DNA of 64,000 bases from a virus. This document shows positions 19,099 through 54,046 of the stretch, in pieces. A model generated the notes under the pieces. That model did not search any database. It saw nothing but the letters and a program-made list of their open reading frames with translations, and was not told the origin of the DNA. How positions within the stretch are numbered: the first letter of the stretch is position 1; every line of letters begins with the position of its first letter. The stretch spans positions 1 to 64,000 of IMG/VR virus record IMGVR_UViG_3300019776_000213. One strand, written 5' to 3'. The position numbers and the translations under genes are program-made.

Positions 19099-20061
19099 AT
19101 GACTAAACGAATCCTATTAGCCGATGGCGACATAATAGCATTCAGGTGTGCAGCAGCTAATGAATCACGAAGCATTAAAGTCACTCACAAAGTTACTGGA
19201 CAAGTTACTTCTCATGCACATAGAACAGCTTTCAAAGAGCATATCCGAGATGAATTTGAAGTGGATGAGTTTGAAATAGAAGATGTAAGAGAAGCTGAAA
19301 ATATTTCGTTTGCTTACAATGCTATCAACACAACAATAGAAGCTCTGAAGAAATCTTGCGAAGCCTCTGAAGTAGAAGTGTTTATGAGTGGCAAGACAAA
19401 CTTCAGAGATAGTCTTCCGTTACCTTCTAAATACAAAGGAACTAGGGAAGGACTTGATAAGCCAGTGCAATTAGAACAGTGTCGAGAATATCTCAAAAAT
19501 AAATACAAAGCTAAAATAGCTGTAAACAAAGAAGCTGACGATGACCTTACAATTCGCGCTCATGAGCTTCGCAAGCAAGGTGATATAGGAATTGTAGCTA
19601 CAATTGATAAAGATGCATACGGCACTGACATATGGCTTTACAACTGGACTAAGATGGACAAGCCTATCAGAATCAAAGGACTAGGATTTCTTGAGTTAGA
19701 TGAGAAGAAAGTGTTGCGTGGACAAGGTAGGTTATGGTACTATGCTCAGTGGGTGAAGGGGGACACCGTAGATGCCTTTAAGCCGTGCGAAGTAGCTGGA
19801 AAGAAGTTTGGGGATACAGGATGCTACAACTTATTAAAAGACTGCAAAACAGACAAAGAAGCTGTACAAGCTGTTTACAACCAATATAAATCGTGGTATC
19901 CTTCTGAACCAATTGTATACAAAGATTGGCAAGGAAATGAACAGTCAAAGACGTTGATAGAGTTCCTAGACTTGTATGCATCTTGTTGTCATATGTTGAG
20001 AGGTGACGATGACAAGTTCGATACGAAATCATTGCTTGAAAAACTCGAAATAGAACTCTAA
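19099..20061 (+). CDS. 5'-3' exonuclease (T7 gp6-like)
   Basis: LADGDIIA, NFR...YKGTR, EADD, IDKD, GDTVD. Confidence 0.88.
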   Translation: MTKRILLADGDIIAFRCAAANESRSIKVTHKVTGQVTSHAHRTAFKEHIRDEFEVDEFEIEDVREAENISFAYNAINTTIEALKKSCEASEVEVFMSGKTNFRDSLPLPSKYKGTREGLDKPVQLEQCREYLKNKYKAKIAVNKEADDDLTIRAHELRKQGDIGIVATIDKDAYGTDIWLYNWTKMDKPIRIKGLGFLELDEKKVLRGQGRLWYYAQWVKGDTVDAFKPCEVAGKKFGDTGCYNLLKDCKTDKEAVQAVYNQYKSWYPSEPIVYKDWQGNEQSKTLIEFLDLYASCCHMLRGDDDKFDTKSLLEKLEIEL

Positions 20062-43791: not shown

Positions 43792-43819
43792 ATTATATCA
43801 GAAATTTCTTATATGTCAA
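43792..43819 (-). promoter_or_regulatory. Internal late-block promoter
   Basis: TTGACA-16-TATAAT with extended TG. Confidence 0.75.
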
Positions 43820-50720: not shown

Positions 50721-50748
50721 ATTATATCACAACTTTTCCATTTGTCAA
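50721..50748 (-). promoter_or_regulatory. Promoter upstream of portal
   Basis: TTGACA-16-TATAAT with extended TG. Confidence 0.75.
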
Positions 50749-50766: not shown

Positions 50767-52218
50767 TTAATAAACTGTTGGAATTGGAGAGGATTGTGAT
50801 AGGTTTGGTATGGCGAATGTGGGGATTGTATAAGATTTTAGCAGTGCTTTCATGGCCGACGCGCAGGAGTCCCATAAATCGTCCTTTTGCTTTCTGTTAC
50901 CATCAATGAAATTTTCAAGTTCTGTAAATAAAAACTCATTCCATTCAGGGTCAACCAATACTTTTACAAACCCTGCTTCAGCTAGAGTAAGGAACGGTTG
51001 CATCCTTTGTAATTTGCTCTTGGTTCCACCTGTCCTATCAACCCTTGCATCTACTCCTGCGTCTACTAGTGTCTTTAAGAAAAACATTGTTGCCGCTTTA
51101 GCTGCTACACCAACGTCCTCTGGTATATATACAGGGCAATTAATTCCCAAACCTTTATCTCTTTTATCTGTTTCAATAATAGTATCAAGAACACCATTTA
51201 TTAGTTTGCGATACTTTTCAGCGTGATGTATAATATAATAACCGTCTTTAGTTTTTGACATCATGACAGATGCAGTCCAGTCTGGGTCTGGATAAGCCTC
51301 AGAAGGTAAACTGCCTGCCAAGTCCATTGCCCTTACCGTACTTACTATGTTATCAGGTAATTCTGTAATCATCTCACACCAAGCTCGTTTAAAGTAGCCT
51401 TGTGTTTCTTGAATAGCGTGCCAGCTTCCTAAGAAAAGACGTTCTCGTTCAGTTCTTTTAAGATTTTGTAAACGGTTCAGGTATGCTGGCTGCTCACGGC
51501 ACAGCACAGGATTGTCAAGAATTGTCGCAGAGATATAAGTGTAGCTTTGAGCATGTATAGTGTCTCCATATAGTGTTTCAAGTTCCTCTTTTGAGTCTGC
51601 TGTTACAGTTTCGCCATTATACGTAGCATACCATCGTTCTTTTCCAGATAATTCAGGTCGTGGAATACCTGTATCCATGTCTAGGTATGCTTGTACAAAC
51701 TTATATAAGTAAGAAGTTCTTGATGGGTTAGCTGTGCAAATTAACTGATGTGGTGCTTTAGCTTTAGACCTGATACGTGATTCAAGGTATTTAATTTGCA
51801 CTTCACTATGCCATTGAGCTTCATCGAATATTACTAATGAGTATTGTCCACCGTCGAAGTTATTAATATCCCTGTCTGCACCACATACTTTAAACTGTAC
51901 TTGCGCGCCAGATGGAAAAGTTGCAGACATCGTAGGGTGAGACTTGAACTTAGCCCCATAATCCCTCCACATATCCTGAGCTTCCATGAACAGACCACCA
52001 GCTTGAGTAAGTTGTGTACTTGTCTCACGAATAAACACTGCCCTAAAAAAGGGGTCATTAACATATTTTAATATTAACATCAGTGCTTGGTGTGACTTGC
52101 CTGATCCAGCACCGCCGCCGAAGATGACGAAGTTAGACTTACAGTTTAAAAACATCTTATGAGCTTCTGAGGAAGGAGCTAATACCTTCCTCTTATTCTC
52201 TTTAACCTCTTTACTCAT
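50767..52218 (-). CDS. terL: Terminase large subunit
   Basis: Walker A GGAGSGKS, Walker B IFDE, TANP, nuclease MDLA..DWTA..DDLWD. Confidence 0.95.
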   Translation of the reverse strand: MSKEVKENKRKVLAPSSEAHKMFLNCKSNFVIFGGGAGSGKSHQALMLILKYVNDPFFRAVFIRETSTQLTQAGGLFMEAQDMWRDYGAKFKSHPTMSATFPSGAQVQFKVCGADRDINNFDGGQYSLVIFDEAQWHSEVQIKYLESRIRSKAKAPHQLICTANPSRTSYLYKFVQAYLDMDTGIPRPELSGKERWYATYNGETVTADSKEELETLYGDTIHAQSYTYISATILDNPVLCREQPAYLNRLQNLKRTERERLFLGSWHAIQETQGYFKRAWCEMITELPDNIVSTVRAMDLAGSLPSEAYPDPDWTASVMMSKTKDGYYIIHHAEKYRKLINGVLDTIIETDKRDKGLGINCPVYIPEDVGVAAKAATMFFLKTLVDAGVDARVDRTGGTKSKLQRMQPFLTLAEAGFVKVLVDPEWNEFLFTELENFIDGNRKQKDDLWDSCASAMKALLKSYTIPTFAIPNLSQSSPIPTVY

Positions 52219-53081
52219 TAATTACCTCCGTTTTATTGTTATCTATATTGACACGGAGGTTTATTTCATCTATAATTAACTGCCTAAGACTGTCAATATC
52301 TACGTCGTAGAAACACTCAGAATACCCATGAAAATATTTTACTGGTTGATCATAATTAGACTTTAGATATTTCAATATTATTTGTTCTATATCCCTGCAA
52401 TAGATACCATTCATGCAGAAGTTATCTATTATTTTAAAGTCTAACTTACTCTTTCTACGAATGTAGGCACAACGCGCACTTCTGACAGCCTAGACTTACA
52501 AGATGAATAGATGGCTTTTGTTTAAACACACCGTGCTTACTACATATAATTTTTACATAAGTAGCAGTATTTACATAATCTACCAAAGAGTAATCATACC
52601 TGTTACCGTGTCTGCTCTTTGCTTTTTCAATAAACTCTTCTGTCGTTAATAACTTGCTCTTGCATAAGTTATAGCAAAATTCTTTACCACATGAAGGACA
52701 ACCTTGTTTCATATTTACATGCGCATAAGGCGACTGAGCGAACTCACCATGTTTTCCACAAATTATCTTGACTTTAGAGTCGCAATCAGTATATTCTATT
52801 AGTGAGTAGTCATACTTATCTCCATGAATTGATTTTGCATTTGCTATAAAACCATCTTTACCTATCTTTTTGTGTTTACTTTTAAGACTATTTCCACACT
52901 TAGTGCAACCATAGCCATTTATATGCCAAGTAGGAGTTTGTAATACGTCACCATGTACAGGACAGCCTATTATTACCTTTTCAGTGCTGCATTTATACAC
53001 TACTTTACTGTAGTTGTACTTAGTTCCATGTTTAGCAATAGCTTTCTTAATAAAATCTTCTGTTGTAACTTTTATTCCCAT
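52211..53081 (-). pseudogene. Degraded homing endonuclease (DUF723-like repeats; nuclease core deleted, frameshifted)
   Basis: Three FI.KA...HG.KYDYS..V.I.C..HG repeats; stop at 52455; C-terminal piece with E..IL..FHGYSECF in another frame. Confidence 0.7.
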
Positions 53082-53320
53082 ATAACCCTTCCAAGGTTGT
53101 TTTCAAATAGTATTATTTCTGACAACTCAACACGTATTGGAAGGGTTTGCCAAGCTGCCAGAAATAATAACACTCAAAAGCAAAAAGCCACTACAGGAAC
53201 CCCTATAGCAGCCTCTTGTATTACTCTATCACAGAAGACTCTCTGCAATATATCTGGCTCACACGCTTCCATTGTCCAGACTTGCTGCAACATTCCTTGC
53301 AGCTTCTCCACAAATATAGA

Positions 53321-53424
53321 CCTACTTATAGGTCGCATTTAAAGCAGCACCCTCAATCGAGGTAAGGAGAGGAGGAGAAAAACCCTCAAAAGAAGATGCT
53401 AGTTTAAATGCACCTTATAATAGG
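53321..53424 (-). ncRNA. Long hairpin RNA with pyrimidine-rich anti-Shine-Dalgarno loop
   Basis: GCAUUUAAA/UUUAAAUGC, AGCAUCUUC/GAGGGUGCU, UUGAGG/CCUCGA; G-U wobbles fit the minus strand; loop GUUUUUCUCCUCCUCUCCUUA. Confidence 0.6.
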
Positions 53425-53502
53425 GGAACTATAAATAGAGATACTATAAATAGTAACGATCCTGCTGATAAGATGACTTTAGCTTGATCAGAGCCTTATA
53501 AC

Positions 53503-53578
53503 TGGAGCGACGTGTCGGAGTCGAACCGACGACATATAGATTGGAAATCTATCGTTCTTCCAACTGAACTAACATCGC
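53503..53578 (-). tRNA. tRNA-Gly(TCC)
   Basis: 76-nt cloverleaf, anticodon arm ATAGA-TTTCCAA-TCTAT, GTTCGA T-loop, encoded CCA. Confidence 0.92.
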
Positions 53579-53586
53579 TTTGAAAC

Positions 53587-53632
53587 TGGCAAACGTGGTA
53601 GGATTTGAACCTACGACTTTCGGTTTTGGAGA
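53587..53632 (-). pseudogene. 3' half of tRNA-Trp(CCA)
   Basis: CTCCAAA loop, ACCGA, T-arm GTAGG-TTCAAAT-CCTAC, CCA end; no matching 5' half. Confidence 0.75.
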
Positions 53633-53636
53633 TCAC

Positions 53637-54010
53637 ATAATATTCGCTATTCGCAAATACAGAATAATTGCCCCGTATTACTCAGTGAGAAAGTGCCGAG
53701 GACTTTAGGAATCGTCATTCCATTTCTTTTATTACAAGGGACATTTCTACACACTTATTCGGATTTCATCATCACCGTATCAAGGCATGTGTCTTCGGTG
53801 AATCGTGTAGAGGGTTTAGTTGCAGTACATAGCGTCAATTCGCACACAGATGCCTACCTGTTTTATCCCAATAACCCATTAGCACGTAAGTGCCACCTCG
53901 AACTGCATTTTACTACATCACTCGCATGGGTAACAACTTCTGTCCATCGCACCAGTGATACAAACTAAACGGTAAGAGCCTTTCTGTTAACAGGATACGA
54001 TCTAGTTTGT
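53637..54010 (-). ncRNA. Candidate ~375-nt structured ncRNA
   Basis: Consecutive helices and a loop-loop pairing; begins at the predicted TSS. Confidence 0.55.
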
Positions 54011-54016
54011 TTTATA

Positions 54017-54046
54017 ATTATACTACATACACCTATGATTTGTCAA
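54017..54046 (-). promoter_or_regulatory. Promoter for ncRNA/tRNA transcript
   Basis: TTGACA-18-TATAAT. Confidence 0.7.

Follow-up and report, generated by a model that had tools for sequence, protein, structure and literature searches.

A long imperfect hairpin lies among the tRNA genes of an IMG/VR phage, and the question it raises is whether it encodes a small RNA and, if so, what the C/U-rich loop of that RNA is for. The original prediction was of an anti-Shine-Dalgarno (anti-SD) RNA that would be made from the late strand and would silence messages with GGAGA-type ribosome binding sites (RBSs) while virion genes escape. We followed this prediction with folding, searches of related phages, covariance models, and an analysis of start regions.

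The locus and its gene layout

The DNA analyzed here (the window) is 64,000 nucleotides long and starts at the first position of a phage record that is complete at 79,766 bp. The ends of this genome are direct terminal repeats, which lie away from the hairpin. Genes of the plus strand (1-29.4 kb) serve replication and nucleotide metabolism (primase/helicase, DNA polymerase, ribonucleotide reductase), and genes of the minus strand (29.5-53.1 kb) encode the virion (tape measure, major head protein, portal, TerL). The closest cultured phages belong to the Pseudomonas Pakpunavirus and Nankokuvirus groups, with a TerL identity of just 38%, and their tRNA genes are likewise placed just upstream of TerL. 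The features that define the locus are:

50767-52218, minus strand: TerL gene
52455-53081, minus strand: HNH endonuclease gene
53321-53424, minus strand: long imperfect hairpin RNA of 104 nt, seen by folding; core of the family covariance model at 53335-53411
53363-53383, minus strand: 21-nt unpaired C/U-rich loop of this hairpin, GUUUUUCUCCUCCUCUCCUUA, in MFE and centroid folds
53503-53578, minus strand: tRNA-Gly(UCC), called by ARAGORN and by Rfam (tRNA, 67.5 bits), upstream of the hairpin in the same transcription unit
53586-53650, minus strand: degenerate tRNA-Trp(CCA) remnant, seen by alignment to the intact tRNA-Trp of relatives L015 and L005

The hairpin lies downstream of tRNA-Gly(UCC) on the minus strand, as originally described, with the tRNA 79 nt upstream. 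The spacer between them holds a tandem direct repeat, CUAUUUAUAGU in two copies (53425-53460, minus strand). The tRNA-Trp remnant keeps the T arm, the 3' strand of the acceptor, and the anticodon loop but has lost the D arm and the anticodon stem, and neither ARAGORN nor Rfam calls it. A tRNA split by a group I intron was ruled out, as the search for introns had no match here and the anticodon stem is disrupted, which makes the remnant a pseudogene. At its breakpoint, a 19-nt stretch (53642-53660) is identical to positions 3973-3991 of L004, which suggests a common insertion or recombination junction. Between the remnant and the promoter described below, some 375 nt (53636-54010, minus strand) contain no ORF and no Rfam match. 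The first bases of this segment (CAAAC) could pair with GUUUG in the acceptor 3' strand of the remnant, a hint of a possible large tRNA-ended RNA; ARAGORN found no tmRNA. The TerL gene of the window is intact, unlike that of several relatives, in which it is split by group I introns (Rfam RF00028, 52-86 bits; L003 5077-5278, L005 1304-1521, L025 5067-5276, L028 5049-5266, and L046 5431-5650).

A stable hairpin on the tRNA strand

The minus-strand RNA of positions 53315-53430 folds with -44.0 kcal/mol (z -6.06), a value reached by none of 200 shuffled sequences. This confirms the proposed minus-strand hairpin with its 21-nt C/U loop at 53363-53383, and also the claim that the minus-strand RNA is the better folder, since the plus strand of the same region reaches just -34.4 kcal/mol (z -4.45). 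When the 79.8-kb genome was scanned on both strands in 10,620 windows of 116 nt (mean -18.5, sd 6.1), this hairpin and its neighbor (53097-53218) held ranks 1 to 4. The strand argument had been built on three G-U pairs; the count was wrong, as the minus-strand fold contains five, and the argument itself stood. It extends to relatives, where the tRNA strand gave the better fold in 19 of 20 hairpins (mean difference -6.9 kcal/mol) and where one U-G pair is retained in 10 of the 12 sequences of alignment A7 (see below).

The loop contains overlapping UCUCC and CCUCC motifs and ends in CUCCUUA, like the 3' end of 16S rRNA. An intrinsic terminator or U-tail is the usual 3' module of Hfq-type small RNAs. 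No U-tract follows the stem of the window hairpin, where a terminator search flagged just a weak 6-bp sub-stem with UAUAUUUGUG; the nearest terminator-like site is 100 nt downstream. Hairpins of relatives have no U-tract either, and tRNAs come directly after them. We also considered a boxA-like UGCUGCUUUAAAU in the 3' arm, and took it as a coincidence because it is paired and is common only to the closest hairpin (L015), not to other relatives.

A conserved RNA family upstream of the terminase gene

A hairpin of 70-105 nt that directly adjoins tRNA genes is present on the tRNA/TerL strand of 27 or more related uncultured phages, whose TerL proteins are 55-76% identical, with one copy per genome. 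Every loop of the family has CCUCC or UCUCC, and the loop was unpaired in at least 20 homologues; the opposite strand of these loci showed no comparably strong hairpins. Two forms can be distinguished. The short form is about 75 nt long, has the loop GCCCCUCCUC, and lies 6-12 nt before tRNA-Thr. The long form, present in the closest relatives of the window (L002-L005 and L023), is a single stem with three unpaired motifs, UUCUCCU, CCCUCCUC or UUCUCCUCCUUC, and again UUCUCCU; a small apical stem is missing in the window and L015, so the motifs are there merged in one large loop. The hairpins of L006 and L021 carry CCUCCUUA, which is exactly the 3' end of 16S rRNA of the E. coli type. The position of the hairpin is variable: it follows a tRNA by 0-4 nt in L002, L023, and L033, and TerL may start as little as about 80 nt or as much as about 3 kb further on, with tRNAs, ORFs, and more promoters between. 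In L002, L003, L005, and L036, just 80-180 nt separate the two.

A covariance model (R1) built from five relatives only, with the window left out, matched the window hairpin with 23.9 bits (E 6e-4, in a search of 2 x 626 kb). Model R2 matched it with 51 bits, also picked up L015, L033, L028, L005, L036, and L026, and gave zero false matches in 689 kb of unrelated viral contigs chosen for a loop-like pattern. A loose pattern, GCCCCTCCTC...ATTGAG, matched more than 115 unrelated viral contigs; only the three contigs that were already known passed R2. In alignment A7, which was fitted to the covariance model and therefore leans towards structure, 97.7% of cells were paired against 39-48% with partners slid; double-sided changes occurred at 17 of 22 stem pairs (equaled in none of 500 shuffles), and the CUCCUC loop core was invariant. 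The same CUCCUC core in the window loop aligns with it. Alignment A9, which covers the long form in the closest relatives of the window and was made with MAFFT and no fitting to a model, had 95.6% of cells paired against 35-47% when slid, with compensatory pairs at 13 of 27. For ten short-form hairpins, a consensus from MAFFT and RNAalifold was mis-registered, and the covariance-model alignment was used instead. The search among relatives, which had been set as a test of the prediction, thus found the loop kept and the stems covarying (A7 and A9).

The conservation is one of structure and loop. Matches in a blastn search of the hairpin region against 64 TerL-related loci were to tRNAs only, indicating no primary-sequence conservation of the hairpin, and the exact 20-nt loop pattern had no match in viral contigs. 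A single TerL protein query recovered no related loci; they were obtained with a TerL alignment as the query. Among Rfam 15 models, only tRNA reached threshold in the window, the best score of the hairpin being a spurious 15.6-bit NEAT1_2 match, and loci of 13 relatives yielded only tRNAs and group I introns. Overall, the hairpin is very probably a genuine, conserved, strand-specific structured RNA gene and belongs to a new family. The family is that of a clade of tailed phages with genomes of 80-90 kb, in which each hairpin forms an independent module of the tRNA cluster that precedes the terminase gene.

Probable transcription and maturation of the hairpin RNA

Two further elements were located on the strand of the hairpin:

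54017-54046, minus strand: perfect sigma-70-type promoter, TTGACA-18-TATAAT, which would drive the non-coding region, the tRNAs, and the hairpin
53181-53218, minus strand: terminator-like stem-loop with a U-rich tail, downstream of the hairpin

The stem-loop is the probable end of the tRNA/sRNA unit. An ORF of 54 codons (53174-53338, minus strand) begins within the base of the hairpin and crosses this stem-loop; it has no Pfam match, and relatives with a hairpin near TerL have no room for it, so it is probably not a gene.

The description of the hairpin as a late-strand RNA was not supported. The unit stands behind a perfect TTGACA-18-TATAAT promoter, and all of the relatives checked (20 of 20) have a sigma-70-type promoter of 11-12/12 at 110-1100 nt upstream on the same strand. 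Host RNA polymerase probably transcribes the RNA already at an early stage. Perfect or near-perfect sigma-70 promoters were also seen before the portal gene (50721-50748, minus strand), before a head or tail gene (43792-43819, minus strand), and elsewhere. Such promoters before virion genes imply that the phage may rely on host RNA polymerase throughout, which would leave room for post-transcriptional timing; since similar consensus promoters also precede late genes, timing is unreadable from sequence.

The hairpin abuts tRNAs on either side, from which we infer an independent gene-like module of the tRNA operon, with ends that would be set by tRNA processing. This behavior argues against a role as leader, terminator, or DNA site and against late-only expression. 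The hairpin RNA would be co-transcribed with the tRNAs from the strong sigma-70-type promoter. Given that hairpins directly abut tRNAs, its release by tRNA-processing enzymes (RNase P, RNase E or Z) is probable, and it probably accumulates as a stable species.

Ribosome binding sites of late and non-late genes

RBSs were counted on our own simple ORF calls, with starts chosen partly by SD strength. The coordinates that had been quoted as examples of RBSs (2100, 3232, and 20059) were correct: TAAGGAGA is present at all three, and AGGAGAAAA at 20061. Non-late genes of the window genome mostly have UAAGGAGAA and late structural genes AAAGGAA(A). The top upstream 7-mers were AAGGAGA (30) and AGGAGAA (25) in the former and AAAGGAA (9) and AAGGAAA (7) in the latter.

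The proposed contrast between GGAGA-type non-late genes and GGAG-less late genes was recovered in the window genome (G000), where GGAG is present in the start region of 8/28 late and 71/105 other genes (Fisher p = 4e-4), counts that are inflated in both classes by the choice of starts partly by SD strength. Late genes of three relatives showed the same avoidance of GGAG (G001, p = 2e-6; G002, p = 4e-6; G008, p = 1e-4). The contrast was non-significant in seven other hairpin-bearing genomes (G004, G005, G006, G007, G009, G010, and G017), with G005 marginal (p = 0.03) and the pattern absent in G017 (13/28 vs 43/108). A weak GGAG trend was also seen in genomes without the hairpin. Consequently, with a significant contrast in four genomes only, the function of the family cannot simply be that of an early-to-late switch; this part of the prediction agrees with G000, G001, G002, and G008 and not with the seven others.

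Complementarity of the loop to ribosome binding sites

Pairing of the loop with start regions, proposed originally as a check, was evaluated computationally. Predicted duplexes were stronger for non-late genes, with a mean of -10.3 vs -7.6 kcal/mol for late genes (Mann-Whitney p 6e-5), and the loop outdid 96% of composition-preserving shuffled loops (p ~0.04). The claimed complementarity between the loop and the GGAGA-type RBSs found at non-late genes was borne out: a perfect complement of at least 8 nt was found in 27/105 non-late start regions and in 0/28 late ones. The tail of 16S rRNA has such a complement in only 6/105 non-late start regions. UCUCCUUA fits UAAGGAGA; the canonical CCUCCUUA would leave an A-C mismatch there. 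Two points count against the pairing model: C/U-rich loops of any kind pair with purine-rich RBSs, and no conserved specific target gene emerged, the best predicted targets not being orthologous across genomes.

We compared loop type with RBS type in ten hairpin-bearing genomes. Those with a UCUCC loop prefer GGAGA (42:18, 45:28, 46:19, 45:8, and 32:14) and those with a CCCCUCC loop lean to GGAGG (18:28, 21:25, 12:22, 16:19, and 19:22), a link that is confounded with G+C content (0.36-0.42 vs 0.45-0.46). The portal tree requires a minimum of two to three switches of loop type. The nested UCUCC case is G010, and there part of the motif is taken up by pairing in the MFE fold. Counts of GGAGGGG RBSs are too small to show an excess that would match CCCCUCC loops.

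A second hairpin beside the HNH gene

The neighboring hairpin that shares the top ranks of the fold scan lies immediately upstream of the HNH endonuclease gene:

53097-53183, minus strand: second long, very stable hairpin with a 15-nt loop, seen by folding
53084-53094, minus strand: RBS region of the HNH endonuclease gene, UUGGAAGGGUU, target of the loop of the second hairpin

Eleven nucleotides of this loop (AACCCUUCCAA, 53137-53147) match the HNH RBS 40 nt downstream as a perfect complement, and a pattern search gave 3 matches in the window vs 0.04 expected. The loop probably represses translation of the HNH homing endonuclease in cis. To judge from its sequence, the second hairpin is a local cis instance of the same design (a long stem with an anti-RBS loop), 140 nt from the first.

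A proposed anti-Shine-Dalgarno mimic and its alternatives

The explanation that we prefer, tentatively and with somewhat less than even confidence, is that the anti-SD-like motifs of the hairpin base-pair with RBSs of the GGAG type and that the RNA acts in this way. The long stem would display one to three single-stranded C/U motifs (CCUCC or UCUCC, and the full CCUCCUUA in some relatives) that act as a free anti-SD mimic. These motifs would pair with GGAG-type RBSs (UAAGGAGA and AGGAGAAAA in the window phage) and compete with 30S binding, and the long duplex might also recruit RNase III. In the window phage and its closest relatives, the GGAG-less AAAGGAA sites of structural genes would pair poorly with the loop, and the effect would fall on non-late, possibly host, messages as the RNA builds up. 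The hairpin has no conserved position relative to genes and no adjacent cognate gene, and would therefore have to act in trans. Two stronger forms of this model appear doubtful to us. One makes the hairpin the agent of an RBS-class-specific translational switch in the subclade of the window. The other, which we hold to be just as unlikely, describes a free-standing RNA copy of the anti-SD with tRNA-like maturation that, with its accumulation, globally out-competes the 30S subunit at GGAG-type RBSs of host and non-late phage messages, the AAAGGAA sites of structural genes having evolved immunity. Titration of RBSs needs near-stoichiometric RNA, which counts against pairing, and a consensus sigma-70 promoter implies synthesis from the start of infection, a poor fit with sparing early genes early.

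The C/U motifs could instead titrate a pyrimidine-binding protein in the manner of CsrB or CrcZ, rather than pair with mRNA. Candidates for such a decoy would be ribosomal protein S1, Hfq, a cold-shock protein, Rho, or a phage RNA-binding protein. Repeated short motifs are a hallmark of protein sponges, and the closest relatives of the window present three separate unpaired CU motifs (UUCUCCU, CCCUCCUC, UUCUCCU) on each stem; the loop sequence is kept while stems drift, and predictions gave no specific conserved mRNA target. Phage manipulation of S1 is moreover known from T4 (PMC3014915, PMC9409239). We nevertheless consider a decoy unlikely. The conserved core is exactly the anti-SD core CCUCC, extended to CCUCCUUA in L006 and L021, and loop type tracks the RBS type of the phage itself, which the binding site of a host protein would not need. 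Neighboring genes encode no RNA-binding domain, and sequestration of S1 is expected to hurt the weak-SD late genes most.

Somewhat less probable again is a cis element of the tRNA/late transcript that directs RNase III or RNase E processing or stability, or that acts as a put-like, polymerase-modifying antiterminator for read-through from the sigma-70 promoter into the terminase and structural genes. In every case the hairpin shares the strand of TerL and stands between a strong promoter and TerL itself (80-180 nt before TerL in L002, L003, L005, and L036), and in the window a terminator-like hairpin stands between it and the HNH and TerL genes. A long near-perfect duplex of 25-35 bp is a substrate for RNase III, and the stem fits this description. 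However, the position before or after a tRNA flips and the spacing to TerL varies between about 80 nt and about 3 kb, which argues for a module complete in itself; an invariant CCUCC loop would be superfluous in a site that served processing only, and the two-hairpin architecture of put is absent. The hairpin is no terminator, since in most relatives a tRNA comes 6-12 nt after it. A reading at the level of DNA, with the inverted repeat serving as a packaging, replication, or recombination site or as the target of a homing endonuclease and the RNA fold being incidental, is very improbable. It could appeal to the nearby TerL and HNH endonuclease genes and to a polypurine/polypyrimidine center with a flanking inverted repeat that could bind protein. 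It conflicts with the asymmetry of the strands (what is a G-U pair on the tRNA strand would be an A-C mismatch on its complement, and the tRNA strand is the better folder in 19 of 20 hairpins), with stems that covary without sequence conservation, with the tight packing against tRNA genes, and with genome ends that are direct terminal repeats elsewhere.

Relation to known systems

Base-pairing small RNAs with C/U-rich loops that occlude Shine-Dalgarno sites, such as S. aureus RNAIII and RsaE/RoxS, share with the preferred anti-SD mimic a single-stranded C/U seed that is located in a hairpin loop, is SD-complementary, and is kept across homologues. They differ in that the RNA of the window is phage-encoded, is located in a tRNA operon, has no terminator tail of its own, and has a much longer stem; Rfam revealed no sequence or model similarity between them and the hairpin. 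As the seed in the window is the generic 16S anti-SD core, the predicted targets are a whole RBS class and not a few mRNAs. The cis anti-SD hairpin that holds down translation of the homing endonuclease I-TevI in T4 resembles our second hairpin, whose loop is an 11-nt perfect complement of the adjacent HNH RBS; the hairpin at 53321-53424 differs in having no adjacent cognate gene.

The statement that no phage system like this had been described overlooked the T4 endoribonuclease RegB, which inactivates early mRNAs by cutting their GGAG Shine-Dalgarno sites with S1 as cofactor (PMC3014915). In both cases RBSs of the GGAG type are a mark of non-late messages and are shunned by late genes (here in G000, G001, G002, and G008), and the common early RBS of the window phage, GGAGAAUAAUA, resembles the consensus of strong RegB/S1 sites, GGAGRAYARAA (PMC3014915). 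A six-frame search of the whole genome with PF10715 (E <= 1) found no RegB homologue, so the GGAG pattern is not otherwise explained by RegB. The candidate agent in the window is an RNA that would pair with the site, as opposed to a nuclease that cuts it, and inactivation of mRNA is here hypothetical.

Stable RNAs are also known from the tRNA clusters of T4 (band C and band D, or rnaC and rnaD) and Pseudomonas phage PAK_P3 (sRNA2/ncRNA2); the PAK_P3 RNAs are abundant late, and ncRNA2 has no start site of its own and appears to derive from processing (PMC4933390, PMC10914365). Like the window hairpin, T4 rnaC and rnaD and PAK_P3 sRNA2 lie among phage tRNA genes; T4 band C/D adjoin a homing endonuclease gene, and the PAK_P3 RNAs lie just upstream of TerL. 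We rejected all three as homologues, since T4 rnaC and PAK_P3 sRNA2 resemble tRNAs, T arm included, and a C/U loop is missing from the fold of each of the three; R2 had no match in the PAK_P3 locus. Small hairpins with UUCCUCCUCCUU loops were noted at positions 84,640-84,700 of the PAK_P3 record and, in PA10/PAK_P1, between the last tRNA and TerL. The hairpins with loops of 13-15 nt (UUUCCUCCUCCUUUC, UUCCUCCUCCUUC) in these cultured Pakpunavirus and Nankokuvirus phages are found in PA10 (L259, 2760-2802), between the tRNA cluster and TerL, and in PAK_P3 (L066, 652-684), just after annotated promoter_16. The short hairpins of PA10 and PAK_P3 are possible distant analogues in cultured phages.

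For very few small RNAs encoded by virulent phages is the function known, and T4 band C/D and the PAK_P3 sRNAs have stayed unexplained after decades and years, respectively. In the new family, an invariant anti-SD motif on a covarying stem constitutes an unusually explicit functional clue, since the RBS motif complementary to it is precisely the one that separates the gene classes of these genomes. Should the pairing model be true, RBS-class-specific translational control, which in T4 is the work of a protein nuclease, would also be achievable by an RNA that mimics 16S rRNA. The hairpin would then be the functional counterpart, in the form of RNA, of T4 RegB, as well as a new viral way to re-program translation by RBS class, would explain why late genes avoid strong SDs, and would offer a compact, programmable tool for RBS-selective repression. 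Even with another mechanism, the family adds solidly to the catalogue of phage non-coding RNAs.
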